From NCBI GenBank assembly GCA_014189685.1, contig DVAB01000023.1, positions 15,346 to 79,345 of the forward strand: a stretch of DNA of 64,000 nt, written 5' to 3'. This DNA comes from Candidatus Naiadarchaeum limnaeum (GTDB lineage Archaea > Undinarchaeota > Undinarchaeia > Undinarchaeales > Naiadarchaeaceae). How positions within the stretch are numbered: the first letter of the stretch is position 1; each line of letters starts with the position of its first letter. The notes beneath the pieces were generated by a model that worked only from the letters and a program-made list of their open reading frames with translations, was not told where the DNA came from and searched no databases. Positions 2,150 through 54,864 of the stretch are shown here, piece after piece. Both the position numbers and the translations under genes were made by a program.

Positions 2150-2289
2150 CGATTTTGCTTCGGAAGCAAAGCTCGAAAATGGAACAAAACCTTTTTATAC
2201 CCATTTATCTATATATTCAGAAGTCCTGCTCAATACAGGGTTACCCGGCAGAGGACGAGCTTTCTCAGCCATTGAAAACCGGGGGTTAG

Positions 2290-2420
2290 TACTGAGCTAA
2301 GGACATTCATTAACAAATCACACCTCAAAAATCACAAAATCAGAACTCACAGGTCATCTGAAATAAAGTATAAATGCATCAATATCACAACTCACAAACT
2401 TACAACTCACATATCAACTT
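2290..2420. repeat. Direct repeats of (A)CAACTCACA plus related ATCACA motifs upstream of the Toprim/dnaG genes; candidate regulatory or ncRNA region
   Basis: AGAACTCACA at 2343-2352 and ACAACTCACA at 2387-2396 and 2402-2411. A TATAAA-like box sits at 2361-2366 inside the array. No ORF with homology. Confidence 0.4.
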
Positions 2421-2424
2421 TGAC

Positions 2425-2886
2425 ATGCTCATTAGTGAGTTAAGTTTGCTAAGGGAATTAGCAAGCTCTTCCGCAGTTGTTGTGGAAGGGAAGCGGGACG
2501 CAGAAGCTCTGCGCTCTCTTGGAATTGATGCTGAGTTTTACTTTATTTCTGGGTCAGTGAGTTCTGTAAATCAGCTAGCCGAATCACTTTCCAAACTCGG
2601 AAAGGAAGTTATCGTGCTAACTGACTTTGATAAAAAGGGCCGCGAACTTGCCTCGCGCTTAATTCGCGAATTGCAAAGTTGTGGTGTAAAAGTAAAAATC
2701 AACACAGAAGTGCGCAAAAATTTGATGCGTGCTTTCAATGGTATAAAAATCGGAGAGATCGAAGATTTAGCATCTCTCTTTGAAAAATTCAATATTGGTG
2801 ATCAAAATGGGAAAAATTGGAATAGCAGCGACAAAATACGTAATAAAAGCAAAGCTTACCGCAACAGGAGTGGTAGAAAAGCCTGA
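2425..2886 (+). CDS. Small Toprim-domain protein (primase-like, COG1658-type)
   Basis: VVVEGKRDAEAL...VIVLTDFDKKGRELA is a Toprim signature. The start was moved to the in-frame ATG at 2425 because the ORF's N-terminus runs through the repeat region. The 3' end overlaps dnaG by about 80 nt. Confidence 0.5.
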   Translation: MLISELSLLRELASSSAVVVEGKRDAEALRSLGIDAEFYFISGSVSSVNQLAESLSKLGKEVIVLTDFDKKGRELASRLIRELQSCGVKVKINTEVRKNLMRAFNGIKIGEIEDLASLFEKFNIGDQNGKNWNSSDKIRNKSKAYRNRSGRKA

Positions 2887-4105
2887 TATAATTGGTGCTA
2901 TTTTTGGGCAAACAGAAGGTTTGCTTGGAGAAGAATTAGAACTCCGCGAATTACAAAAATCAGGAAGAATCGGAAGAATTGAAGTTGAGGTAACTTCTAC
3001 TGAGGGGAAATCTGAAGGAACTATCGAAATACCAACTTCTCTCAATAAAGAGGATACGGCACTGATAGCAGCCGCCCTTGAAACAATAGAGCGAATAGGA
3101 CCATGCGATGCAAAAGTTGAGGTGCTAAGTGTTGATGATGTTCGCTCAACTAAGCGCGATTATGTTATTGAGCGCGCAAAATCAATTCTTGGAGTTATGA
3201 CAAAAGAAACTCCTGAATCCCAGGAATTGACTGAGATGGTAAAAGAAAAAGTAAGAGTTGGCGAAATTTCAGAATATGGGGTGGACAAGCTTCCTGCTGG
3301 CCCAGATCTAGAAAGTTCAGAAGAAATTATTTTAGTAGAGGGTAGAGCTGACGTTGTTAATCTCTTAAAACATAATATTACAAATGTCATCGGTTTGGGG
3401 GGTACATCAATTCCACATAGCATAAAGGAGCTATGCTCACAAAAGACAGTGACTGTGTTCTTAGACGGAGATAGAGGCGGAGATTTAATCCTAAAAGAAC
3501 TATTGCAGATAATTGACGTAGACTTTGTTGCGCACGCTCCGCCTGGAAGGGAGGTTGAGGAACTAACAAGCAAGGAAATCCTAAAGGCACTGCGCACAAA
3601 AATCACAAAAGAGGATGCAGTTAAAGCTTTTGAGCAGCAAAAAATTGCGTATGAGCAGTCTCAATCCCGGACTCAACAATTGCCAGCTCGTCGCGTATAT
3701 AGGACTTCTGGAGAAACTTATGGTGGAAGGAGCCACGCTACAACTAAGAGTGCACGTATTGAAGTCAAGCCCGAACTTGAGGAGCTTTCAAAAATTTCAA
3801 CAGGCCTGATTGGAACAGGGCAGGCAGCTCTTTTGGCACAATCAGGGACAACTTTCAAAGAAGTTGGCCGTGTTCCGAAATCAGATATCTCAAGTGTTTT
3901 GAAAAATTTGCAAGAAGGAAAGGCTCAGGCATTAATTGTTGATGGCGAAATCGATCAGAGTTTAGTAAATGTGACAACTGCAAAAGGAATTACATATGTC
4001 ATAGGCTCAAAAAAGCCACGCTTTCTTAAAAGGAAACCAGGAATTTATGTTTTGGATTCAACCTTTTTAAGAAAAATAGTTTCAGAGCAGGGTAGAAGCA
4101 AATGA
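2807..4105 (+). CDS. dnaG: Archaeal DNA primase DnaG (Toprim-containing)
   Basis: N-terminus MGKIGIAATKYVIKAKLTATGVVEKPDIIGAIFGQTEGLLGEELELRELQKSGRIGRIEVE is the conserved archaeal DnaG opening. Toprim motifs IILVEGRADV and FLDGDRGGD are present. Confidence 0.8.
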   Translation: MGKIGIAATKYVIKAKLTATGVVEKPDIIGAIFGQTEGLLGEELELRELQKSGRIGRIEVEVTSTEGKSEGTIEIPTSLNKEDTALIAAALETIERIGPCDAKVEVLSVDDVRSTKRDYVIERAKSILGVMTKETPESQELTEMVKEKVRVGEISEYGVDKLPAGPDLESSEEIILVEGRADVVNLLKHNITNVIGLGGTSIPHSIKELCSQKTVTVFLDGDRGGDLILKELLQIIDVDFVAHAPPGREVEELTSKEILKALRTKITKEDAVKAFEQQKIAYEQSQSRTQQLPARRVYRTSGETYGGRSHATTKSARIEVKPELEELSKISTGLIGTGQAALLAQSGTTFKEVGRVPKSDISSVLKNLQEGKAQALIVDGEIDQSLVNVTTAKGITYVIGSKKPRFLKRKPGIYVLDSTFLRKIVSEQGRSK

Positions 4106-4440
4106 TGCCAGGGCTTGATCCACGAGCTTTAAAGAAGATGATGAAGCAAATGGGAATGGATATGCAAGATATTCCTGCTAGTGAAGTTATAATTAAGAAG
4201 CCAGAGGGTGGACAGATTGTAATTAAAAATCCGCAGGTACAAAAGATGAAAGTTCCGGGGCAAGGGGAGAGCTTTCAAGTCATGGGCAATGCTACTGAGA
4301 GCTCTGAAATTGAAATTTCTCAAGATGATATTAACTTAGTTGCAGAGCAGGCAAAAGTTCCTATGGAAAAGGCAAAAGAAGCTCTTGAAAAAGCAGGCGG
4401 AGATATAGCAAAAGCTATATTAAGCCTTGAGCGCAAATAA
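4102..4440 (+). CDS. nac: Nascent polypeptide-associated complex alpha subunit (NAC domain plus C-terminal UBA)
   Basis: ALKKMMKQMGMDMQDI...VIIKKPEGGQIVIKNPQV is a NAC domain. The C-terminal EKAKEALEKAGGDIAKAI is UBA-like. Confidence 0.75.
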   Translation: MMPGLDPRALKKMMKQMGMDMQDIPASEVIIKKPEGGQIVIKNPQVQKMKVPGQGESFQVMGNATESSEIEISQDDINLVAEQAKVPMEKAKEALEKAGGDIAKAILSLERK

Positions 4441-4501
4441 AAAAGGCATATAAACTATTTTTCAATAATTTTTTCATTAGCGGGAGCGTGGCTAAAAAAT
4501 T

Positions 4502-5683
4502 ATGACGGGAATCGTAATCGTTGGAGCACAATTTGGGGATGAAGGAAAAGGAAAAATTGTTGATTATTTAGTTGACAGACTAAAGATTGACTATGTTGTT
4601 CGTTTCCAAGGCGGAAATAACGCCGGGCACACAGTTGTAGTTGGAAATGAAAAGTTCAAACTTCATCATGTTCCAAGCGGAGTTGTTCAGGGCAAGCAAT
4701 GTTTTCTTGGAAATGGGATGGTAATTGATCCAAAAGTTTTGATTGATGAAATCAATAATTTAAAAGAGCGCGGTATTAATCCAAAATTAACAATAAGTCC
4801 TCTTGCGCATGTAATAACAGAAAAGCACAAGGAATTAGATGCAGCCGATTCCAAAATCGGCACAACTAAAAGAGGAATCGGGCCTGCGTATTCTGACAAA
4901 ATTTCCCGCAGCGGCACGCGTTTTTCTGAACTGAATTCTGTTTATCCCAACTATTATTCTGAGCTCTCAAAATATATTGGAGACGTTTCTCTTAAAGTAA
5001 ATCAAGCTCTTGAGAAAAAGAAAAAAGTTTTATTTGAAGGCGCACAGGGAACTCTCTTAGACATCGATTTCGGAACATATCCATTTGTGACAAGCAGCAA
5101 CACAATTGCAGGCGGTGCTTGCGTGGGCGCAGGAGTTTCTCCAAAGAAAATCTCTTTAATTATTGGAGTTTCAAAAGCATATACAACTCGCGTTGGAAGT
5201 GGGCCATTTCCAACAGAATTAAAAAATGAGGTCGGTGAACAAATTAGAAATAAAGGCGCAGAATTTGGCACAACAACTGGCCGGCCGAGAAGATGCGGGT
5301 GGCTAGATGCGGTTATGCTTAATTATGCAATTCGTCTGAATGGCATTGATAGCATTGCTCTGACTAAGCTGGATATTCTTTCCGGATTAAAAGAATTAAA
5401 AATTTGCACTGCCTATGGATATAATGGAAAAATCTTGCGAACATTCCCTTTTGATGCAAAAATTCTTGAAAAATGCGAACCCATCTATGAAACTTTACAC
5501 GGTTGGCCAGAATTCAGTCACGAAGAATGGCAAAAATTTGCAAAATTGAAATTTGAAAGGTTGCCAAAAGAAATACGCAACTATATTTTGCTAATTGAAA
5601 GGCTTACCAAAACTCCAATATCACTCGTGAGCTTCGGCCCAGACAGGAACGATACTTTTATAAGGCACAAAATTTTAGTTTGA
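4502..5683 (+). CDS. purA: Adenylosuccinate synthetase
   Basis: GAQFGDEGKGKIVDYL, GGNNAGHTVV, GTTKRGIGPAY and GTTTGRPRRCGWLD are hallmark PurA motifs. Confidence 0.85.
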   Translation: MTGIVIVGAQFGDEGKGKIVDYLVDRLKIDYVVRFQGGNNAGHTVVVGNEKFKLHHVPSGVVQGKQCFLGNGMVIDPKVLIDEINNLKERGINPKLTISPLAHVITEKHKELDAADSKIGTTKRGIGPAYSDKISRSGTRFSELNSVYPNYYSELSKYIGDVSLKVNQALEKKKKVLFEGAQGTLLDIDFGTYPFVTSSNTIAGGACVGAGVSPKKISLIIGVSKAYTTRVGSGPFPTELKNEVGEQIRNKGAEFGTTTGRPRRCGWLDAVMLNYAIRLNGIDSIALTKLDILSGLKELKICTAYGYNGKILRTFPFDAKILEKCEPIYETLHGWPEFSHEEWQKFAKLKFERLPKEIRNYILLIERLTKTPISLVSFGPDRNDTFIRHKILV

Positions 5684-5695
5684 GCTGTGGGACTC

Positions 5696-6001
5696 ATGGT
5701 AAAAAAATTTTATATAATTCGTTCAGGAAAAAATCCAAAAAATTCTAAGGATACTGAACATGTTTTTACAGGAGCGAGCCCGAGACAGGCTGCTCTAAAA
5801 GCAGCAAAGCGCGGCTATACTAATTTTATGTTCCGTGAAAGAGGAAGGAGAAATTCTGATGGCACAGTTACAATCCATGTTTTTAAGGGAAGCTGGAAAT
5901 TGGTTAAATATCCGCGTGAAAATAAACCTTCATGGTTGCCTGATAAAATAAGAATGCCAGTTGTGAAGAAAGTGCAGACTGCAAGGGTTGAGGAAATCTA
6001 A
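5696..6001 (+). CDS. MC1-family archaeal chromatin protein
   Basis: HVFTGASPRQAALKAAKRG...IHVFKGSWKLVKYPRENKPSWLPDKIRMPVVKK closely resembles Methanosarcina MC1 as I recall it from memory. ATG at 5696 chosen inside the GTG-started ORF. Confidence 0.6.
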   Translation: MVKKFYIIRSGKNPKNSKDTEHVFTGASPRQAALKAAKRGYTNFMFRERGRRNSDGTVTIHVFKGSWKLVKYPRENKPSWLPDKIRMPVVKKVQTARVEEI

Positions 6002-6003
6002 TT

Positions 6004-6579
6004 TTATATCCCAAGCAATTTCGCACCCAAATAAATTATTATCAAATAATTTGCAATTATATGCACCACTGAAAATCTCACAACGCTTACGATTCCATAT
6101 CCCATAAAGAAATAGAAAAATCCTGTAAAAACATCATAACCAACTGTTAAAGCAATCGCAGTTAATCCTAAATTTTGCGCAAAGAATGCATAAGAAAGCG
6201 GCGCAAAATAAGCTATCCCAATAAATCCTAGAGCCGCAACCAAAACATCCTGCGGCCTCTCAATTGTGAAATATCCTGATAGTGTAAAAGCAGCTGCTCC
6301 AACTATTGCCCCGACTAAACTTCCATATCTTATTGAGGAAACAATTGTGAAAACACTAATCAATTCAATTCCAAGCGCAACTGGCATAAATCGTTCTGGA
6401 AAACGCGCAGCCGCACCTATTAAAATAAATCCGACAACAATTCCAAAGTCGCGCAGCGTGAATCTTGTAGTTGTAATTATATATGCAATAAAAATTAGCG
6501 CCGCAACTGTAACCGCGAGATATTTCAGCGTATCTTTTGTTAGTGGTAGTTGCGCCTTGTATCTTTTTGCTTTTGCCAT
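6004..6579 (-). CDS. Polytopic membrane protein of unknown function (paralog of the 49840-50409 and 54171-54713 genes)
   Basis: Five to six hydrophobic helices and no catalytic motifs. Similar size and topology to two other tRNA-adjacent genes in the window. Confidence 0.4.
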   Translation of the reverse strand: MAKAKRYKAQLPLTKDTLKYLAVTVAALIFIAYIITTTRFTLRDFGIVVGFILIGAAARFPERFMPVALGIELISVFTIVSSIRYGSLVGAIVGAAAFTLSGYFTIERPQDVLVAALGFIGIAYFAPLSYAFFAQNLGLTAIALTVGYDVFTGFFYFFMGYGIVSVVRFSVVHIIANYLIIIYLGAKLLGI

Positions 6580-7043
6580 TAAATTTTTTTCAACTCCTTT
6601 TGGTATTCAGGAAATTCAAGCATGAATTCATTTAGTCTCCATATTGGAACTATTGGAATTTTGTCCGCAAACACAATATTTTCCTCAAGAAAAGTTACAA
6701 TTAACGGGTAAATAGCCTTTTTCTTTAACTTTTTAAATTTTTTATAATTTTTTGCGCGCGCAGTTTGATCCTGTGCGGCCTTTTTGAGCGCAGTTGTTTT
6801 TCCAGGTCTCATATTCCACTTTTTGCAATCAATGCAAAGAATTTCATTAAAGCGCGCAGCAATGATATCAACCTCATGCCTTTTTTTATTTAAAGTAAAG
6901 CGCATATTTCTCTGAACCTCGAACCCATGCTCTTCCAAAATGCGCGCAACTATTTGTTCAAATTCCTGCCAAGCGTGCTCCTTTAAAATTTCTTCAATAT
7001 CTTTTCCGCTTGCAATCAAATTTTGAAGTTCTTGGAGGTCCAT
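6579..7043 (-). CDS. PD-(D/E)xK nuclease, Holliday-junction-resolvase Hjc-like
   Basis: E...HEVDIIAARFNEILCIDCKKW reproduces the Hjc E..D(12 aa)(E/D)xK spacing in a 154 aa protein. Confidence 0.45.
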   Translation of the reverse strand: MDLQELQNLIASGKDIEEILKEHAWQEFEQIVARILEEHGFEVQRNMRFTLNKKRHEVDIIAARFNEILCIDCKKWNMRPGKTTALKKAAQDQTARAKNYKKFKKLKKKAIYPLIVTFLEENIVFADKIPIVPIWRLNEFMLEFPEYQKELKKI

Positions 7044-7085: not shown

Positions 7086-7185
7086 AGCGAGGTAGGGCAG
7101 CCTGGAGTGCCCGTCGGGCTCATAGACACACCTTAAAGGGTGTTGAGGGACCCGAAGGTCGTTGGTTCAAATCCAACCCTCGCTA
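7086..7185 (+). tRNA. Initiator tRNA-Met (CAU) with a 25-nt intron at the canonical 37/38 position
   Basis: Acceptor AGCGAGG/CCTCGCT with A1:U72. D-stem GGGC/GCCC. Anticodon stem TCGGG/CCCGA has three consecutive G:C pairs (archaeal initiator hallmark). Loop CTCATA|intron|A. Intron GACACACCTTAAAGGGTGTTGAGGG contains a CACC/GGTG hairpin. T-arm GTTGG-TTCAAAT-CCAAC. CCA not encoded. A T-tract follows. Confidence 0.75.
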
Positions 7186-16986: not shown

Positions 16987-17559
16987 ATGAATAGTAATAT
17001 GGTTATTATGAACAAGAGGGCAGAGGGAAAGTTCAATAATTTGTTTGTTTTTTTTCAGCGCGTTTGCTACTTCTGGACTCGCGAATTCGAAATGACACCG
17101 GCACATTTAGTGACTGCTGCGGAAAAGGCATTCAGCAAATCTGGAAAAATAAAAGAAGCTTCCGTTCGAATATCAGAATTAGATAGAGCAGTTGGTTTCT
17201 ACTTACTTGCATCTTTTAAGATAGCTTTCGAGGAAAAGCTAGATATAAAAAAGCTCAAAGAAATTCTTTTGGCCACATTTACAATTGTTAATAATGAGTC
17301 AATTCCAACTATTGAAGTTGTGATAAATCAAGTAGCTGGAATAGATATACGCCGCTATACTCCAAAAACCGACGAAGAATTGTTACTTGAGGAGTTAAGA
17401 AAAGAAGATGACAAAAAAAGAAATGCAAAAGAACTGCGCGAAGAACTTATTCAATTAGACAACCTAAAAATTGCTCTGAAATTCTTTTTGCGCAATCTGT
17501 CTCAATTTGTTGCTCTTGCTAAACAGCGCAGAATAAAAATTCTCCAATCTGGTTATTAG
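16987..17559 (+). CDS. Hypothetical protein (start uncertain; the alternative is Met at 17092)
   Basis: 190 aa ORF with a charged coiled-coil-like C-terminal half. No motif recognised. Confidence 0.25.
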   Translation: MNSNMVIMNKRAEGKFNNLFVFFQRVCYFWTREFEMTPAHLVTAAEKAFSKSGKIKEASVRISELDRAVGFYLLASFKIAFEEKLDIKKLKEILLATFTIVNNESIPTIEVVINQVAGIDIRRYTPKTDEELLLEELRKEDDKKRNAKELREELIQLDNLKIALKFFLRNLSQFVALAKQRRIKILQSGY

Positions 17560-17604
17560 CTAACGAAGTAATTAATAAATACCTTAACTTGTTACTATCC
17601 TTCT

Positions 17605-18921
17605 ATGGAACTCGACAATCTAGAGAACTGGCGCAAATCCCACTATGCTAATGAAATTACCCCAAAATCAGACGGAAAAAAAGTTGTTCTAATGGGTTGG
17701 ATGCGCGAAATTCGTTTGCACGGGAAGCTTGCTTTTATAGTTTTAGCAGACCGAAGCGGAGATTGCCAAATAACTATAAAAGAGGAAGAAAATTCAAAAT
17801 TTTTTGAAAAAATCCGCTCCCTAAATAGAGAAGATGTTATCGCAGTAAAAGGAACTGTTAAAAAAACAAAGCAAACTGTCCGCGGAGTTGAAGTTTTGCT
17901 TTCTGATTTTAAGCTTTTAAACCGTGCGCAAACACCTCTGCCCTTGGATGTTGCTGAAAAAACCCCAGCGCTTTTTGATACTCGTTTAGATAATCGTGTC
18001 TTGGATTTAAGAAAGCCAAAAGTTCTTGTGATTTTTAAAATTCGCGGCGAGATTTTGCGCGCAGCACGCGAATATTTTGCAAAAAACAATTTTATGGAAA
18101 TCGAAACCCCAAAAATTATTGCAACTGCAACCGAGGGAGGCGCAGAACTATTTCCAGTTTCATATTTTGACAAAGCCGCGTTTTTGAGACAAAGCCCGCA
18201 ATTATACAAAGAATTGATGACAGCCTGTTTTGAAAAAGTTTTTGAAATCGGGCCGATTTTTAGAGCAGAGCCTTCTGAAACCACGCGCCATATAGCAGAA
18301 GTAACCCAAATGGATATTGAAATAGGCTTTGCAACAGAAGAAGATACTTGGGAAGTTTTTGATGATTTAATTCCTTATATTTACAGCAGTGTGAAAAAAA
18401 ATTGCGCAGACGAACTAAAAATTTTGAGCGCTGATTTAAAAGTTCCAAAAGCTCCTTTCAAGCGGGTTTCATATACAGAAGTTTTAGAAGCACTTTCTAA
18501 AAAAGGCTTAAAATTAAAATGGGGTGAGGATACTCCACCGCATGGAGAAAAACTAATCACAGAAATTTACAAAGGACCAGTAATTGTTTATGGCTACCCA
18601 TCCGAGCTTAAGCCGTTTTATATTGCTATCCATGAAAAAGACTCAAAAATCTCGCATGGTTTTGATTTAATTATGGAAGGGCTCGAGATTGCTTCAGGCG
18701 GCCGCAGAATTCACGATCCAAAAATTTATGAGTCTCGATTAAAAGCAAAAGGTTTGAATCCAGATAATTTTAAAGAGATCACAAAATTCTATCATTTGGG
18801 GATGCCACCGCACTCTGGATGGGCTATTGGGGTTGATAGATTAGTTCAAGTTATTTGCGGATTGCAAAATGTGCGCGAGGCTGTTCTATTTCCAAGGGAT
18901 GTGAAAAGGTTGACGCCTTAA
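17605..18921 (+). CDS. aspS: Aspartyl-tRNA synthetase (archaeal type, class IIb)
   Basis: OB-fold N-terminus, FRAEPSETTRHIAEVTQMDIE (motif 2) and GGRRIHD/GMPPHSGWAIGVDRL (motif 3). Confidence 0.85.
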   Translation: MELDNLENWRKSHYANEITPKSDGKKVVLMGWMREIRLHGKLAFIVLADRSGDCQITIKEEENSKFFEKIRSLNREDVIAVKGTVKKTKQTVRGVEVLLSDFKLLNRAQTPLPLDVAEKTPALFDTRLDNRVLDLRKPKVLVIFKIRGEILRAAREYFAKNNFMEIETPKIIATATEGGAELFPVSYFDKAAFLRQSPQLYKELMTACFEKVFEIGPIFRAEPSETTRHIAEVTQMDIEIGFATEEDTWEVFDDLIPYIYSSVKKNCADELKILSADLKVPKAPFKRVSYTEVLEALSKKGLKLKWGEDTPPHGEKLITEIYKGPVIVYGYPSELKPFYIAIHEKDSKISHGFDLIMEGLEIASGGRRIHDPKIYESRLKAKGLNPDNFKEITKFYHLGMPPHSGWAIGVDRLVQVICGLQNVREAVLFPRDVKRLTP

Positions 18922-26989: not shown

Positions 26990-26998
26990 TTTGAAAAA

Positions 26999-27093
26999 TA
27001 GCCCCGAGCAGATTCGAACTGCTGTCTCAGGCTTTCTCTCTCAATCTTTTTGAGACCAGAGGCCCGTATCCTTGGCCGCTAGACGACGGGGCT
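26999..27093 (-). tRNA. tRNA-Gln (CUG) with a 22-nt intron at the canonical 37/38 position
   Basis: Reverse complement: acceptor AGCCCCG/CGGGGCT (A1:U72), D-stem GTCT/GGAT, anticodon stem CGGGC/GCCTG, loop CTCTGG|intron|A, intron TCTCAAAAAGATTGAGAGAGAA with a TCTCAA/TTGAGA hairpin, T-arm AGCAG-TTCGAAT-CTGCT. Confidence 0.65.
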
Positions 27094-27126
27094 AATATTA
27101 TATTTAGCGGGACTTATTTTATAATC

Positions 27127-29271: not shown

Positions 29272-30049
29272 GCCTTTTTACAACTCCATTCTCCAAAATT
29301 AAAGGAAGTGTATAAGGTGATAAGCCATCTAAAATTTCTATATCATCCAAAGTTTTCAGCCCCATTTTTTCAGCCGTTTTTTCTAGTCCAAGCTCAACCT
29401 CATGATCAAGTTTTAAAATATAGCAGTGCATTTTCTCCACACCCTGCCGCAGCGCGCCTAATGCTCTGTGGTGGCCATCAACCAAAACATATCGCTGGCC
29501 GTTTTGGACAACAAGCAGCGGCTCTGCAAGCCCAAGCGTTATTTCATATTCTCTCGCAGAGAGTTCATCTTTGTAGATTTTCCCTTGGGTAGGGATGAGA
29601 TTTCTCAGCAGCAGATTGTCCTCTAAAAAAGTAACTTTAACATTGTGCAAGCTCTCAAGAGTTTTCTTCAGAGTCTCAACTTTCAAAGGAGTAACTCTTT
29701 CAATATGGGCCCGGATAACATCTGAGTTAGTAACTAATCCCAACAAATTTCCTTTATCATCAACAACAGGGAATCGTGAGTGTCCAGATCTGAACATTAA
29801 ACGGGCAATTGCTTCCATATCCATTTCAGGCGGAATTGCAACAACACGGCGTTCCATAACTTCTTCAACTTTTTTATCAAGCGGTTGCAATATTATATCC
29901 TCATATGCAATAATACCAAAAACCTTTCCACCCTCAATAACAGGAAACCCGTCGTGAGCAGTTTCTTTCATTATTTTTATCACTTGCTCAACAGTCATAG
30001 CCTTAGTTACAGTTGTTGGATGCGAATTCATAAATTCATGCGCCTTCAT
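29264..30049 (-). CDS. CBS-pair domain fused to a ParB/sulfiredoxin-like nuclease domain
   Basis: N-terminal CBS repeats (VFGIIAYEDII, LLGLVTNSDVI). C-terminal VLVDGHHRALGA is the ParB/Srx motif. Confidence 0.6.
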   Translation of the reverse strand: MKAHEFMNSHPTTVTKAMTVEQVIKIMKETAHDGFPVIEGGKVFGIIAYEDIILQPLDKKVEEVMERRVVAIPPEMDMEAIARLMFRSGHSRFPVVDDKGNLLGLVTNSDVIRAHIERVTPLKVETLKKTLESLHNVKVTFLEDNLLLRNLIPTQGKIYKDELSAREYEITLGLAEPLLVVQNGQRYVLVDGHHRALGALRQGVEKMHCYILKLDHEVELGLEKTAEKMGLKTLDDIEILDGLSPYTLPLILENGVVKRLV

Positions 30050-30091
30050 AATACAAATAAATGTAACACACTTATTATAAGGTTTATTAAA

Positions 30092-30439
30092 ATGGCCATT
30101 AAGTATTATTCAGCCCCTGACATAAAGCGAAAAATTTCCGAGCTTATTCAGAATAACGGCTTTCATAATGTGAGTGCTGAAAGAATTTACTGTTTCAGAA
30201 GCAAGGGTTCAAGTTCAAGAAGAATTTTGGCGCGCATTTGGAGCTTTCCAAAAATATGGCAGCAGGCTTTGTACATGGAGCCGCGGTATGTGATTGAGGT
30301 TTTGTCTGAAAGATTTGATAAACTAAGTCCTGAAAAACAGGAGGAAGTTTTGATTCACGAACTAAAACATATTCCAAAAAAATTTTCAGGCGGATTGCGA
30401 AAACACGATCATAAAAATCCGAGGTCGATAAGATTATAG
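30092..30439 (+). CDS. Putative zinc metallopeptidase, SprT/DUF45-like HExxH protein
   Basis: LIHELKHIP HExxH motif in about 115 aa. Start set at the ATG at 30092 inside the longer ORF. Confidence 0.4.
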   Translation: MAIKYYSAPDIKRKISELIQNNGFHNVSAERIYCFRSKGSSSRRILARIWSFPKIWQQALYMEPRYVIEVLSERFDKLSPEKQEEVLIHELKHIPKKFSGGLRKHDHKNPRSIRL

Positions 30440-49763: not shown

Positions 49764-49837
49764 GCCCCTGTGGTCTAACCTGGATATGATGGAAGCTTGC
49801 GGAGCTTTTGATCTGAGTTCAAATCTCAGCAGGGGCA
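49764..49837 (+). tRNA. tRNA-Arg (GCG)
   Basis: Acceptor GCCCCTG/CAGGGGC, anticodon stem GAAGC/GCTTT, loop TTGCGGA, T-arm CTGAG-TTCAAAT-CTCAG, discriminator A. The D-arm is 2 nt longer than minimal and its pairing is imperfect. Confidence 0.55.
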
Positions 49838-49839
49838 TC

Positions 49840-50409
49840 CTATCCAAATACGCTTATCACAGTTGCGGCAAAAGAAGTTAGCAGGAAATAGTTAACACTT
49901 AAATTTAGAAAAGAAAGCATTATATGTTTTATTAAGGGCTCCGGTGAGAAAAAAGCCTTAACAATATTTCCACCGATATATTTACCAACTATTATTCCAA
50001 TCATCCCAAACAGGACAAAATTTTCCACAGGGATAAAAGCTCCAAAAATTCCCAGTGCTGTTAGATAAACCGAATCGTAAATTGTAAGCATTGGCAACGG
50101 ATAACTTCCGCCAAGAATTTTGCTCATTCTCCAAATCAAGATCGTTGATAAAATTCCTACCAGCGCACCGGCCTGCCAACCAAACATGTGCCCTCCAACC
50201 AATGTTAAAAAAGAGTGAAACCCAAGAAGCATATTTCTAGAGAACGGTGTTGAGCGGCTAAAAGTAACCAATAAAATTATTGCAGAAACGCTAAGGGCGC
50301 TTTTTATTCCAAATAGCACTGGAATAACAAAGATAGCTATTAATCCTATTAACTCAATCGCACTGCTTATTTTTATGAACGATTTTTCTTTCATTCTTCC
50401 AAGGGGCAA
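49840..50409 (-). CDS. Polytopic membrane protein, paralog of the 54171-54713 gene
   Basis: 189 aa with five or more TM helices. FSRSTP / LTLVGGHMFG matches FSRANS / IIVIAHLHGA in the paralog. Confidence 0.4.
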   Translation of the reverse strand: MPLGRMKEKSFIKISSAIELIGLIAIFVIPVLFGIKSALSVSAIILLVTFSRSTPFSRNMLLGFHSFLTLVGGHMFGWQAGALVGILSTILIWRMSKILGGSYPLPMLTIYDSVYLTALGIFGAFIPVENFVLFGMIGIIVGKYIGGNIVKAFFSPEPLIKHIMLSFLNLSVNYFLLTSFAATVISVFG

Positions 50410-50459
50410 AGCTATTCCAAAGAAATCGTATTTAATTGTTTCTATTGATGTTAAATGAG

Positions 50460-50533
50460 CGCTGCCGACGAGATTCGAACTCGCATGAGCAGACTTAGGA
50501 GGTCTGTGCCTGTCCAGGTTAGGCTACGGCAGC
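50460..50533 (-). tRNA. tRNA-Arg (CCU)
   Basis: Reverse complement: acceptor GCTGCCG/CGGCAGC, D-stem GCCT/AGGC, anticodon stem CAGAC/GTCTG, loop CTCCTAA, T-arm GCGAG-TTCGAAT-CTCGT. Confidence 0.7.
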
Positions 50534-50645
50534 AAAATTATTCTCGTCAAAGAAGCACTTAAACTTTTACATTCTCACTGGAATCTCAATACCTAGGCTA
50601 CAGGAGCACGATATATATATCACTTTAGCTATAAATTAATTAAAA

Positions 50646-51611
50646 ATGGGTGCTGACTTTAGCGATGCAATAATTCAACAAGCTACATCTATTTCTGAGA
50701 CTTTGGCTAAAGCCAGAAATGCTGTCCCTCAACTAAAAGACGTTAATTCTTTACTTAGGCAGATAATAAAATTATCGAAAGAGACAAGTGCTTTTGGGAA
50801 AAAAGCAAAGCAAATGACGATGAAACATACTTTTGACTTTTATAAAGATATTGTAGTTTATACTCCTGATGCAATTTTTAGGTTAATTAAAGACAAAGAC
50901 GGGCGGTATGAGAAGAGCGAACTTTTGAGAGAGCTATCTTTTTTTGAAAGGCGTGCGGTTCAAAAATATAGCTCAGAATTTTTAAGAATAACAGAAGCGC
51001 TTTCTAAGATTCAAATGCTCGGAGATAAATGGGAAGGACGGAAATTAATCCCAGGAGAACTTAGGAATGTGCTTTATTCAATGATTTTATCTGCAAAGAG
51101 GGCTTACAAAGAAACAAAACCCACGCATGAAAGCAAAAAAGCCTTTGACGACTCTATTATTACTTTCTTGGATAAACTTACGGCTGAACTTAAAAGTGGG
51201 TTAGATAGTTTGGAGATGCAAATAACAAGTGGCACTTTGAGACTAGATAAAAAGTCTGCCGGAGCAGTAAGCGAATTAAATAAATTACTTTCATGGCGTC
51301 TTAAGCTTGAAAGGAATAGGAGATGGGATGATATATTAGGGGCATTTTATTTTCGTATTGGGTCGTATATTATTTGGGCGTTATTGCTTTTTATAATCTT
51401 TCTTGTAATATCAGTGATTGGCTTTTTCATGTACACTTTACAGGGAGTTAATGTAGTTGTTCCTCTTGGGACCTATGCTTTATTTGGTGCTATAGTAAGT
51501 CAAGTACTTTCTTTCGTAAAGCTTATTTATGGTTTTGCTTCTGAGTGGTCTAAGACAAGAAAAGGTAAAAGAATGTCGGCTATCCAATCAAAATACTTCG
51601 GCAATGGCTAG
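50646..51611 (+). CDS. Hypothetical protein: long helical/coiled-coil cytoplasmic domain with two C-terminal TM helices
   Basis: 321 aa. Hydrophobic IIWALLLFIIFLVISVIGFF and LGTYALFGAIVSQVLSF near the C-terminus. Confidence 0.35.
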   Translation: MGADFSDAIIQQATSISETLAKARNAVPQLKDVNSLLRQIIKLSKETSAFGKKAKQMTMKHTFDFYKDIVVYTPDAIFRLIKDKDGRYEKSELLRELSFFERRAVQKYSSEFLRITEALSKIQMLGDKWEGRKLIPGELRNVLYSMILSAKRAYKETKPTHESKKAFDDSIITFLDKLTAELKSGLDSLEMQITSGTLRLDKKSAGAVSELNKLLSWRLKLERNRRWDDILGAFYFRIGSYIIWALLLFIIFLVISVIGFFMYTLQGVNVVVPLGTYALFGAIVSQVLSFVKLIYGFASEWSKTRKGKRMSAIQSKYFGNG

Positions 51612-52176
51612 AAAAAAGGAAGCTTTAGCACAAGCCAAGGCAATTAAAGAAGCTTATTTTGCACAAAAGGTTGGAAAGCTTCCAATTTATGAGTTTAATG
51701 GTTATATGCTCACCATTATTTTCGCGGGTTTAGATGATATAGACTATATCAAAAAAGAATTAGCAAAATTAGGGGTCGAAATCAAAGAAGAGAAGGAACA
51801 GAAATTAATAGGGCTTGTTGATTTTATCAATCGAATTTTAAGTATACTACAGCGCTATTCCGAGCGAAATAAACTTGATATCGGGAAAAGTTTTTGTGAA
51901 AAACTTTTGAAGACTGTATTGAACTACAATACTTTTGTTATGGCATATATTGATTTCCTAGGAAAACAAGGTTTTCTCTCCAATATGAGTTTTCTTTTAG
52001 GTTTTAGTGGGATTTACTCTGCTCAAAGGAAAAATTTAAGTAAGCACATAAAGGAAGCCGGTATAAAAAGAAGACACATAATTGAAATAGGGCGAATAAT
52101 TTTTGGAGATCGAAACAAAAACATAACTAAAATGTTTTCTCTTTTAGAAAAAATCCATCCAAAACCTTTGCCGTAA
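51607..52176 (+). CDS. Hypothetical protein
   Basis: Start chosen at MARKKEALAQ, overlapping the upstream stop by 4 nt. No motif recognised. Confidence 0.3.
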   Translation, partial: ARKKEALAQAKAIKEAYFAQKVGKLPIYEFNGYMLTIIFAGLDDIDYIKKELAKLGVEIKEEKEQKLIGLVDFINRILSILQRYSERNKLDIGKSFCEKLLKTVLNYNTFVMAYIDFLGKQGFLSNMSFLLGFSGIYSAQRKNLSKHIKEAGIKRRHIIEIGRIIFGDRNKNITKMFSLLEKIHPKPLP

Positions 52177-52179
52177 TAT

Positions 52180-53958
52180 CTACATCCTTTCTGGAATCTC
52201 AATACCTAGCAAATAAAGGCAGTTTTTCAAAACATTAAATGTTGCTTGAACTACTGCAACTCTTGCATTTATCAAATCTTTATCAGGCGCGTTTAAAACA
52301 GGCAAATTATTATAGAACAGATTAAACTTTTCTGCCAATTTATGCGCATAGTTTGCAAGCGTATGAACTCTGTAATGCGTTGCCGTCTCTTGAATAATTA
52401 ATGGAAACTTTGCTAAATGCTTAACCAGTTCGTGCTCCTCCTCCTGTTCAAGCAAATTAAATTTAACTTCGCTCAATTTTATTGATTCAGCTTTTTCCAA
52501 AATTCTTTTTGCGCGCACAGCAGCATATTGTATATAAGGCCCTGTTTCTCCCTCAAATTCTAAGGCCCTATCCCAATCAAAGAAAATTGTTTTTGTATTA
52601 CTAATGTTAAGAATTGAAAATTTAATTGCGCCTATTGCAATCTGCATTGCAGTATTCTTCTGCCCCTCAAGGGGAAGCTCAGGATTTCTGCTTGTTACTT
52701 CTGCAAGCGCCTTTTGAAACATTTTTTCTTTTAGCTCTCTGTATGTAATTGTGAGTCCTTCTCTTGAGCTCATTTTTTCCCCTTGCAGAGTAATCAAGTC
52801 AAAAGTTAAGTTGAAAGATTTTTTTACTTGTTTAAATCCCATCAGTTCAAGAGTTTTGAAGAGCTGCTGGAAATAAAGCCTCTGCTCACTTCCTGTAACA
52901 ATAATCGTGCGGTCAATTTTGTATTTCTTGAATTTTTCTTCTGCCAAAGCAAGATCTCGAGTTGAATAAAGAGTTGTTCCATCGCTCTTTAATAAAAGAA
53001 AAGTATCCAAATCATATTTTTTAAGCTCAACAACAACTGCTCCGGCACTTTTTTTTGCAATTTTTTTCTTTTGTAGTTCTTGGACAAGATCCTTTCCACG
53101 CTTATCCATTTGGCTCTCAAAAAAATAATAATTAAATTTGACTCCTAAATCTTTGTAAATCTCTTCATACTCATCCAAACTCCACTGTCTTGTCCTTTTC
53201 CATAAATCCATTAGCTCACTGTCCTTTCCCTCTTCCAATTTTTTCTGTAATTTTTCAACTTCTGCTTTGTGTTCTGGACTTTCTTCCAATTTTTTAGAGG
53301 CTTCTGCATAAATTCTCCCTAACCATTCTCCTCTATTTGAGTTTGGAGTATCTCCTCTGTGGAAAGTTTGATAAGCCCATAGACATTTTGCAACATGCGC
53401 TCCGATATCTCCCTGATAATTCGCGCGCAAAACCTCGTATCCATTATATTCAAGAATTCTGCTCAAACTTTCCCCCAAAAGCGTACCTCTCAAATGCCCA
53501 ATGTGAAAAGCTTTGTGCGTATTTGCTTGGGAAAACTCAACCATTATCTTTTCTTTTCTCTTTTCAGCCCTGCTATAATCTTTTTCAAAAGTTTCTTTTA
53601 TCACTTCTTTTGCAAAAGCTCCTCTATTAAGGAAAAAGTTTACATATGCACCAGCAAGACCAACCTTCTTTGCAATTGAAGGCTTTTTGGTATTTGCTAG
53701 GATTTTCTCAGCAATATCCCGCGGGGAAACTTTTTTTTGCCTTCCAAGCTGAAAAGAAATACTGCAGGCCAAATCCCCCATTTTTGCGCTTGGGGGCTCT
53801 TCAATAGAATTATCTAAATCGCCTGTTTTTACTTTTAACTTCAATTTTTTTAGAGTTCCCTCAAGAGAATTAAAAACATCTTCCCTTGCTTTCATCCAGG
53901 CGGTTTTCATAATTCGTTTATAATGAGACTTTGCTTTTAAACTTTTACAAAATTCCAT
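52180..53958 (-). CDS. argS: Arginyl-tRNA synthetase
   Basis: Class I HIGH motif (FHIGHLRG), DALR-type anticodon-binding C-terminus, 592 aa. Confidence 0.85.
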   Translation of the reverse strand: MEFCKSLKAKSHYKRIMKTAWMKAREDVFNSLEGTLKKLKLKVKTGDLDNSIEEPPSAKMGDLACSISFQLGRQKKVSPRDIAEKILANTKKPSIAKKVGLAGAYVNFFLNRGAFAKEVIKETFEKDYSRAEKRKEKIMVEFSQANTHKAFHIGHLRGTLLGESLSRILEYNGYEVLRANYQGDIGAHVAKCLWAYQTFHRGDTPNSNRGEWLGRIYAEASKKLEESPEHKAEVEKLQKKLEEGKDSELMDLWKRTRQWSLDEYEEIYKDLGVKFNYYFFESQMDKRGKDLVQELQKKKIAKKSAGAVVVELKKYDLDTFLLLKSDGTTLYSTRDLALAEEKFKKYKIDRTIIVTGSEQRLYFQQLFKTLELMGFKQVKKSFNLTFDLITLQGEKMSSREGLTITYRELKEKMFQKALAEVTSRNPELPLEGQKNTAMQIAIGAIKFSILNISNTKTIFFDWDRALEFEGETGPYIQYAAVRAKRILEKAESIKLSEVKFNLLEQEEEHELVKHLAKFPLIIQETATHYRVHTLANYAHKLAEKFNLFYNNLPVLNAPDKDLINARVAVVQATFNVLKNCLYLLGIEIPERM

Positions 53959-54023
53959 TTAATTTGGATTTATCAATTCTCTTGTAATTTTTGCCTGCGC
54001 CTATGAAACTCAGATTAAATGAA

Positions 54024-54138
54024 TGGACCCGAGGGGATATTCAGCTCTGCTGAATACACCGAGCGTCAGCGAGAGCGTTTGAACCCCCATTAAGAGGTCC
54101 GAAGCCTCTTGTCCTAATCCAGGTTAGACCACGGGTCC
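54024..54138 (-). tRNA. tRNA-Arg (UCG) with a 40-nt intron at a non-canonical T-loop (59/60) position
   Basis: Reverse complement: acceptor GGACCCG/CGGGTCC, D-stem GTCT/GGAC, anticodon stem AGAGG/CCTCT, loop CTTCGGA, T-stem GGGGG...CCCCT split by a ~40-nt insert (approx. CGCTCTCGCTGACGCTCGGTGTATTCAGCAGAGCTGAATA) with an 8-bp TATTCAGC/GCTGAATA hairpin. Confidence 0.55.
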
Positions 54139-54170
54139 GTAATAATTAGGGAATAAACGCACTTATCTAT

Positions 54171-54713
54171 TTACCGTAAAAAAGCCATTATCTGCGGCAG
54201 AAAATTTCTCAAAATAAGATAGTTAAATATGATATTTATTACGCTGAGGGGAAGCCTTCTTGTTATAGGGTCCATAAATACATAAACGCGCACAAATCCA
54301 ACAAGCCCATTTCCGAATATTATAATTGTCCACAAACTGTATTCTAAAAGATTTGCAGCCGGGATTAGAGCTGCGATGTAAGATAATATGACTAGATAAA
54401 CAGTATCCAGCAAAATCCATGGCGGCTTTTGAAAACTTCCAAGGTATTTTCCTGTCATGTTTATGAGCGGTGCACTTGCAATTGCAACAAAAGCAGCTGG
54501 AATAGCCCCATGCAAATGCGCTATTACTATTATAAGCACGCTGTGGAATTCTATTTTTAAATTATCATAGAGCGAATTCGCGCGGCTAAAGATTACTAAG
54601 AAAGTTGCGAGAATTGTTATAAAAGCAATTTTTGGGAAAAATAGCAGTGGGACAAAAAGAATTACGAGTAACATAATCAGGTCAAATCTCAGCAAACTTC
54701 TTGCGGTGGTCAT
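54171..54713 (-). CDS. Polytopic membrane protein, paralog of the 49840-50409 gene
   Basis: 180 aa with five or more TM helices. See the paralog alignment under 49840-50409. Confidence 0.4.
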   Translation of the reverse strand: MTTARSLLRFDLIMLLVILFVPLLFFPKIAFITILATFLVIFSRANSLYDNLKIEFHSVLIIVIAHLHGAIPAAFVAIASAPLINMTGKYLGSFQKPPWILLDTVYLVILSYIAALIPAANLLEYSLWTIIIFGNGLVGFVRVYVFMDPITRRLPLSVINIIFNYLILRNFLPQIMAFLR

Positions 54714-54790
54714 TTTTTTTGTAATTTAACATCGGTTTATAAATTCCCTTGCAGTTTGTCCCTGCACCCGCGATGCCGATGTTAAATTAG

Positions 54791-54864
54791 TGCCCCCAAG
54801 GGGATTTGAACCCCTACCAATAGCTTAGAAGGCTATCGCCCTATCCAGGTTAGGCTATGGGGGC
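54791..54864 (-). tRNA. tRNA-Arg (UCU)
   Basis: Reverse complement: acceptor GCCCCCA/TGGGGGC, D-stem GCCT/GGGC, anticodon stem ATAGC/GCTAT, loop CTTCTAA, T-arm AGGGG-TTCAAAT-CCCCT, discriminator A. Confidence 0.7.

Follow-up and report, generated by a model that had tools for sequence, protein, structure and literature searches.

A tRNA-Arg(UCG) gene on the minus strand at 54024..54138 of the window (the whole 64,000-nt stretch analysed here, taken from a 97-kb contig of an aquifer metagenome; G+C 37%) is very likely a functional gene whose T-loop carries a 40-nt archaeal bulge-helix-bulge (BHB) intron between tRNA positions 59 and 60. A gene with an intron of this length and position had been proposed in a sequence-only reading of the region, and in-silico splicing, constrained folding and orthologue comparison agree with that proposal. 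The 576-aa arginyl-tRNA synthetase (ArgRS) encoded next to the tRNA matches HIK00428.1 (UniRef100_A0A832XLW5), from Candidatus Naiadarchaeum limnaeum, at 100% identity, placing the host in the Naiadarchaeales, Undinarchaeota, DPANN. One aquifer Naiadarchaeales MAG has a G+C content of 37.7%, matching the window (PMC7414124).

Exons, intron and splice motif

The gene is divided as follows.

54024..54138, minus strand: pre-tRNA-Arg(UCG), complete gene, 115 nt including the discriminator A; CCA is not encoded
54078..54138, minus strand: 5' exon, pre-tRNA nt 1-61, comprising the acceptor 5' strand, D arm, anticodon arm, variable region, T-stem 5' strand and T-loop 54-59 (UUCAAA)
54100..54102, minus strand: anticodon UCG, pre-tRNA nt 37-39, followed by G37
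54038..54077, minus strand: 40-nt intron at tRNA positions 59/60, sequence CGCUCUCGCUGACGCUCGGUGUAUUCAGCAGAGCUGAAUA
54024..54037, minus strand: 3' exon, pre-tRNA nt 102-115, comprising U60, the T-stem 3' strand CCCCU, the acceptor 3' strand CGGGUCC and the discriminator A

The stems, anticodon loop and T-stem gap described in the sequence-only reading can all be read off the minus strand from 54138 to 54024. The acceptor stem has 7 bp (GGACCCG/CGGGUCC), the D stem is GUCU/GGAC with a D-loop, AACCUGGAUUA, that has G18, G19 and A20, the anticodon stem AGAGG/CCUCU closes the loop CUUCGGA (U34 C35 G36 G37), and the variable region is 4 nt long. Intact pairs were found at 21 of the 21 stem positions. 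The two halves of the T stem, GGGGG and CCCCU, are 47 nt apart in the gene (UUCAAA, 40 nt and U), and removal of 54077..54038 gives the T arm GGGGG-UUCAAAU-CCCCU, the usual archaeal consensus. Arginine identity is conferred by an NCG or NCU anticodon with C35, together with A20 in the D-loop; both C35 and A20 are present, and argS is adjacent. The identical 40-nt insert occurs in two separate metagenome assemblies, ruling out an assembly artefact.

The junctions lie in a strict 3-4-3 hBHBh' motif, with both splice sites inside bulges. Its elements, and a hairpin that competes with it, are listed here.

Pre-tRNA nt 51-55 with 103-107: outer helix h, the 5-bp T stem
54080..54083, minus strand, nt 56-59: 5' strand of the central helix H, T-loop U54 U55 C56 A57, with its partner UGAA at 54040-54043
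54040..54043, minus strand, nt 96-99: 3' strand of the central helix H, intron UGAA; 4/4 pairs
54077..54079, minus strand, nt 60-62: 5' 3-nt bulge A58 A59 C(i1); predicted cut after A59 (54078/54077)
54037..54039, minus strand, nt 100-102: 3' 3-nt bulge U A U60; predicted cut before U60 (54038/54037)
54044..54076, minus strand: inner helix h' GCUCU/AGAGC (5 bp; nt 63-67 with 91-95), a bulged C, GCUGA/UCAGC (5 bp) and a 12-nt loop
54038..54056, minus strand, nt 83-101: 8-bp hairpin UAUUCAGC-AGA-GCUGAAUA, alternative fold, incompatible with the BHB

BHB motifs are cleaved after the second nucleotide of the bulge. Applied to AAC and UAU, this rule places the cuts at A59|C and A|U60, and thus the intron at 59/60. 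The earlier reading had allowed that the junctions might show no BHB-like motif; a strict one is found there, at both junctions. When the 40-nt insert was shuffled, only 118 of 10^6 sequences formed, at the same place, an H of 4/4 pairs together with an h' of 5 bp or more, equivalent to a chance of ∼1.2e-4.

The precursor was folded with ViennaRNA, a check suggested alongside the original proposal. Once the four cloverleaf stems were enforced, the minimum free energy (MFE) structure was exactly the strict hBHBh' motif, at -46.1 kcal/mol, while the cloverleaf combined with the 8-bp hairpin evaluates to -33.4 kcal/mol. With the cloverleaf enforced, or with the T arm folded alone, the pair probabilities were ∼1.0 for h', 0.55-0.73 for H and ∼0 for the 8-bp hairpin. 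In fully unconstrained folding of the precursor, the BHB and the hairpin each reached ∼0.41-0.42 and the tRNA body was misfolded. The hairpin had been noted previously and is indeed present, but it had been regarded as compatible with the BHB, and this part does not stand. The bases of its 3' arm, GCUGAAUA, are in the BHB the partners of the T-loop (UUCA/UGAA) and of the intron's 5' end (GCUCU/AGAGC), and since this arm is needed to build both H and h', hairpin and BHB are mutually exclusive.

It is conceivable that the intron is real but that the precursor adopts the hairpin, which would then be processed as a relaxed bulge-helix-loop motif by a broad-specificity endonuclease. The helix is perfect over 8 bp (9 with a G-U pair), it is in the unconstrained MFE fold with a probability of ∼0.42, and the relaxed motifs of three related genes (the L165 and L167 introns and that of L003 tRNA-Arg(UCU), described below) suggest a tolerant enzyme. 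However, this fold puts the splice sites in or beside a continuous helix or in an open loop, without 3-nt bulges, it requires a misfolded tRNA body, and its probability falls to ∼0, with the strict BHB dominating, both under the cloverleaf constraint and in the isolated T arm. We therefore regard it as very unlikely. The unconstrained, non-cloverleaf fold was likewise rejected as the processing structure, as it requires a misfolded tRNA body and has no splice site in a bulge. The features that mark relaxed motifs, a missing or non-standard bulge or a disrupted H, are not seen in the tRNA-Arg(UCG) intron, whose bulges are 3 nt and whose H has 4/4 pairs.

For the strict BHB, we propose the following pathway. 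The gene would be transcribed from its own A/T-rich promoter box, and the tRNA body of the precursor would fold as a cloverleaf. T-loop nucleotides 54-57 (UUCA) would pair with the intron UGAA to form a 4-bp helix, with the T stem stacked on one side and GCUCU/AGAGC on the other, leaving the 3-nt bulges AAC and UAU. Cleavage by the archaeal splicing endonuclease (EndA) would follow the second nucleotide in both bulges; ligation of the exons by an RtcB-type enzyme would then give the T arm GGGGG-UUCAAAU-CCCCU, and CCA addition would come last.

On the 97-kb contig, neither an EndA nor an RtcB gene was found in the ∼83 kb covered (window ORFs of 150 aa or more and ∼19 kb of flanks). For EndA, the search consisted of Pfam scans of 50 window ORFs and the precomputed Pfam annotation of the contig flanks, with no tRNA_int_endo match; a 154-aa Mrr_cat/NERD/Hjc-like protein at 6579-7043 was considered and is not EndA. 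Three further BHB introns on the contig imply that splicing machinery is present. The position of the intron had been taken to require an endonuclease of relaxed specificity. The alpha4 and alpha'2 endonucleases require a strict 3-4-3 motif, and only relaxed motifs need the (alpha-beta)2 or epsilon2 enzymes (PMC3239211, PMC5829648); since the motif is of the kind accepted by alpha4 and alpha'2, the window intron does not by itself demand a relaxed-specificity enzyme. For strict motifs, cleavage by a typical alpha4 enzyme is limited to the canonical position (PMC3239211), and DPANN lineages with an alpha4 EndA carrying an 'L3' loop have more disrupted tRNA genes (PMC5829648). The relaxed motifs in the relatives hint that the endonuclease of this lineage may be tolerant of deviations.

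Detection of the gene and its place in the argS cluster

The unspliced gene escapes the usual tools. ARAGORN, which had been suggested as a check, did not report it when run on the window or on the sub-region, and Rfam at its gathering threshold found nothing at the site; at a relaxed threshold, the Rfam tRNA model gave a partial, sub-threshold match of 24.2 bits with a false T arm borrowed from the insert. These failures of general-purpose finders follow from the location of the intron in the T-loop. Non-canonical introns are searched by default in the archaeal mode of tRNAscan-SE 2.0 (PMC8450103).

We searched the complete window, on both strands, for strict BHB motifs, removed the intron of each candidate in silico and passed the product to ARAGORN. 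Three of the 4,824 candidates yielded a tRNA with an internal junction: a tRNA-Met, a tRNA-Gln and tRNA-Arg(tcg). The spliced tRNA-Arg product is 75 nt long, with its junction at nt 61, position 59/60. A relaxed BHB scan of the window gave no additional intron-containing tRNA gene. The other two introns are canonical.

7125-7149: anticodon-loop intron of tRNA-Met(CAU), position 37/38, from in-silico splicing
27055-27034: anticodon-loop intron of tRNA-Gln(CUG), position 37/38, from in-silico splicing

Of eight tRNA genes detected on the part of the contig that was examined, four carry BHB introns, and with introns in half of its detected tRNA genes the organism must be able to splice them. The tRNA-Gln gene (26998-27094, minus strand) was labelled tRNA-Arg(tct) by ARAGORN, with a 97-nt span; after BHB splicing (27055-27034), it is tRNA-Gln(CUG) with an A1-U72 pair. 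A tRNA-His(GUG) with a 45-nt canonical BHB intron lies on the same contig ∼5.5 kb past the window end (L163, ∼17490-17609). It precedes hisS by ∼20 nt, so that this contig pairs a tRNA with its cognate synthetase a second time.

The tRNA-Arg(UCG) gene belongs to a cluster at 49764-54864, in the order UCU, UCG, argS, CCU, GCG, in which all four tRNA-Arg isoacceptor genes surround argS.

54790..54864, minus strand: tRNA-Arg(UCU), intronless, upstream member of the cluster
54159..54172, minus strand: promoter-like box AAATAGATAAGTGC, ending 21 nt upstream of the tRNA-Arg(UCG) 5' end, found by sequence comparison
52180..53910, minus strand: argS (arginyl-tRNA synthetase), 576 aa from Met17 of the ORF, immediately downstream of tRNA-Arg(UCG)
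50459..50533, minus strand: tRNA-Arg(CCU), intronless
49764..49840, plus strand: tRNA-Arg(GCG), intronless

The same order is found at the Undinarchaeales loci L004 (3162-6701) and L085 and L086 (both 2162-5701), with 57% ArgRS identity, where the four tRNA-Arg genes are intronless. By sequence comparison, the tRNA-Arg/argS cluster and its UCG slot are conserved across the phylum; the cluster was not seen at the other DPANN argS loci scanned. No second UCG tRNA gene was found in the cluster or in the parts of the contig scanned for tRNAs. The UCG, UCU and CCU genes each have an A-rich box, followed by AAG(T/C)GC, that ends 21-22 nt before the gene, and these boxes would be consistent with a shared archaeal promoter.

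The gene content of the window is ordinary archaeal housekeeping together with many arginine- and lysine-biosynthesis genes, including carA, carB, OTCase, LysX/ArgX, ArgC-like and amino-acid-kinase genes. An ORF at 29885-30439 (plus strand), lying among housekeeping genes, matches the Pfam family 'Putative phage metallopeptidase' (PF18894, E = 9e-26). Paralogous membrane-protein ORFs of ∼180-190 aa at 54171-54713 and 49840-50409 (both minus strand; 33% identity, E = 3e-20) each lie beside a tRNA-Arg gene, and neither was assigned a family by Pfam. The gene is kept in all the related loci, as two tandem copies in L167. A short inverted repeat (TTTAACATCGG...CCGATGTTAAA) around GGYGCAGGCAAAAATTRCAAGRGAATT also forms a module that follows tRNA-Arg genes and precedes the start of the next gene (53973-54001, minus strand; a degenerate copy at ∼54745-54775, minus strand; and L003, ∼3160-3260). 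It may act as a terminator, promoter or regulatory element.

Orthologues and intron turnover in relatives

The UCG slot upstream of argS was compared across related loci, given here in order of ArgRS identity.

L003 (85% ArgRS identity): 49-nt intron at 59/60; H 4/4, bulges AAC/GAU, h' of 2 bp, a mismatch and 9 bp
L164 (81%): T-loop intact; 37-nt intron at the canonical 37/38
L083 (79%): intronless
L165/L166 (78%): 37-nt intron at 59/60, slightly relaxed on the 5' side; from the same samples as the window
L167 (73%): intronless
L084 and L168 (72%): intronless

Intronless tRNA-Arg(UCG) genes thus precede argS in L004, L083, L084, L167 and L168, with ArgRS identities of 57-79%. The nine UCG-slot tRNAs, whether spliced in silico or naturally intronless, fit one cloverleaf, with 96.8% of cells paired. 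Compensatory changes occur at 9 pairs of this alignment, whose register is sharp and whose fit was matched by none of 500 shuffles; the T stem, which the intron spans, is 100% paired and itself shows compensatory changes. This covariation between spliced and intronless orthologues indicates that the intron-bearing copies evolve as working tRNAs and not as pseudogenes.

That the gene is a tRNA pseudogene, put out of action when 40 nt of unrelated DNA entered its T-loop, an alternative already raised in the earlier reading, is accordingly most improbable. The absence of a call by standard tRNA finders would fit such a pseudogene, as would the lack of a detectable relative of the insert among other introns or loci. 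Against this, all stem pairs are intact and covary with those of the orthologues, the perfect 3-4-3 BHB has predicted cuts that restore the consensus T-loop exactly (chance ∼1e-4), the gene is the sole UCG decoder of a phylum-conserved cluster, and the L003 and L165 orthologues have other inserts at 59/60 with the geometry unchanged.

[quoted passage not shown] Introns at 59/60 of 36, 103 and 133 nt are present in L003, L164 (2989-3168) and L167 (∼2011-2250), respectively, and L168 has one at 37/38; the tRNA-Arg(UCU) of the window has none. L167 tRNA-Arg(UCU) carries an additional D-loop intron and so has multiple introns. The six T-loop introns of the window and the relatives all keep the geometry, with 3-4 of 4 pairs in H, 3-nt bulges and an h' helix. 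The motif is relaxed in L165, with an extra U opposite the 5' bulge, and in L003 tRNA-Arg(UCU) and L167, where H has 3/4 pairs.

In pairwise comparison, the window intron has no significant similarity to the other introns (z ≤ 1.3), and no copy was found elsewhere in the window or in viral contigs; among other loci, the only hits were to the same contig. The UCG intron of L165 (1027-1063) and the UCU intron of L003 (3103-3138) are, however, ∼70% identical (z = 7.5), and the T arms of UCG and UCU genes are nearly identical (GGGGUUCAAA/UCCCCU). The occurrence of one intron family in both UCG and UCU genes suggests transfer between neighbouring paralogues, by gene conversion or transposition.

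Among genomes with 72-85% ArgRS identity, the genes thus have unrelated introns of 36-133 nt at 59/60, a 37/38 intron instead, or none. From these comparisons, position 59/60 in the clustered tRNA-Arg genes of the Naiadarchaeales appears to be a fast-turnover intron site, and it may be a hot spot where introns are actively gained, lost and exchanged. If so, it would be a DPANN counterpart of the intron transposition of the Thermoproteales, at species-level resolution.

Some archaeal tRNA-Trp introns contain a C/D box guide RNA, with the C box RUGAUGA and the D box CUGA. That the insert is a mobile-element remnant or an embedded small RNA of this or another kind is extremely unlikely: it has two D-box-like CUGA tetramers, and duplicated tRNA 3' ends near tRNA-Arg(UCU) in relatives resemble integration scars, but 40 nt is too short for a guide RNA, the C box (RUGAUGA) is absent, Rfam gives no match, there is no copy elsewhere in the window or in viral contigs, and the insert has no flanking direct repeats. 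A C/D box RNA specifically was rejected on the absence of UGAUGA from the 40 nt and of an Rfam match.

Two further features of the relatives were observed. A second tRNA-Arg(UCU) 3' end (∼20 nt, ...CGGGAGCGCTTT) lies 150-190 nt downstream of the gene in L168 (3075-3283) and L167 (2228-2395), and the spacer before it is G+C-rich and conserved between the two; Rfam gave no match. The duplication may be an integration (att) scar or a small RNA. The orthologue in the closest relative, L003 (3875-3998), has the anticodon UCU yet keeps G37 (loop CUUCUGA versus CUUCGGA). A G at position 37 is characteristic of tRNAs that decode CGN. The anticodon may have shifted recently, or the sequencing or assembly may be at fault; read as real, it would leave the L003 cluster with two UCU genes and no UCG gene.

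Relation to known archaeal tRNA introns

Archaeal BHB introns at 59/60 have reportedly been described by Marck and Grosjean in 2003 and by Sugahara et al. in 2008, in Thermoproteales, other Crenarchaeota and Nanoarchaeota, and are reviewed in PMC4090602. The tRNA-Arg(UCG) intron resembles these in its site, its 3-4-3 geometry and in being short and non-coding, and in both cases T-loop nucleotides 54-57 act as anticodon-loop nucleotides 32-35 do at the canonical site. It differs in its host, a mesophilic, small-genome DPANN archaeon of the Undinarchaeota. The sequence-only reading held such introns to be confined to a few archaeal lineages, which is too narrow: 59/60 is among the listed recurrent non-canonical intron sites (PMC4090602) and is already represented in DPANN (PMC3239211). 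Compared with the canonical 37/38 introns of tRNA-Met and tRNA-Gln in the window, the motif is the same and the enzyme presumably so; the difference lies in the location, the T-loop rather than the anticodon loop. The intron is therefore of a kind already known and reveals no new mechanism. tRNA introns are not mentioned in the Undinarchaeota description paper, and the present case extends non-canonical BHB introns to another DPANN phylum. Tools that do not search for non-canonical introns may under-count tRNAs in Undinarchaeota genomes.

The closest parallel in host is ARMAN-2 (Ca. Micrarchaeum), like Naiadarchaeum a DPANN archaeon with introns at 59/60. The ARMAN-2 tRNA-Pro(GGG) has strict hBHBh' introns at 53/54 and 59/60, the latter position and motif class being shared with tRNA-Arg(UCG), and the 59/60 intron of ARMAN-2 pre-tRNA-Cys(GCA) is cleaved by archaeal EndA in vitro (PMC3239211). 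The tRNA-Cys intron is 13 nt and relaxed (hBH), whereas that of Naiadarchaeum tRNA-Arg(UCG) is 40 nt and strict. The ARMAN-2 endonuclease is of the epsilon2 type (PMC3239211).

In the Thermoproteales, introns turn over and are shared between tRNA species (PMC4033280, PMC4090602). The Naiadarchaeales resemble them in the presence or absence of introns, in positional turnover and in having an intron family common to two isoacceptor genes. Unlike in the Thermoproteales, the turnover is seen here only in one small gene cluster of one DPANN order, where 59/60 turns over quickly between near-species and so offers a modest natural series for intron gain, loss and movement.
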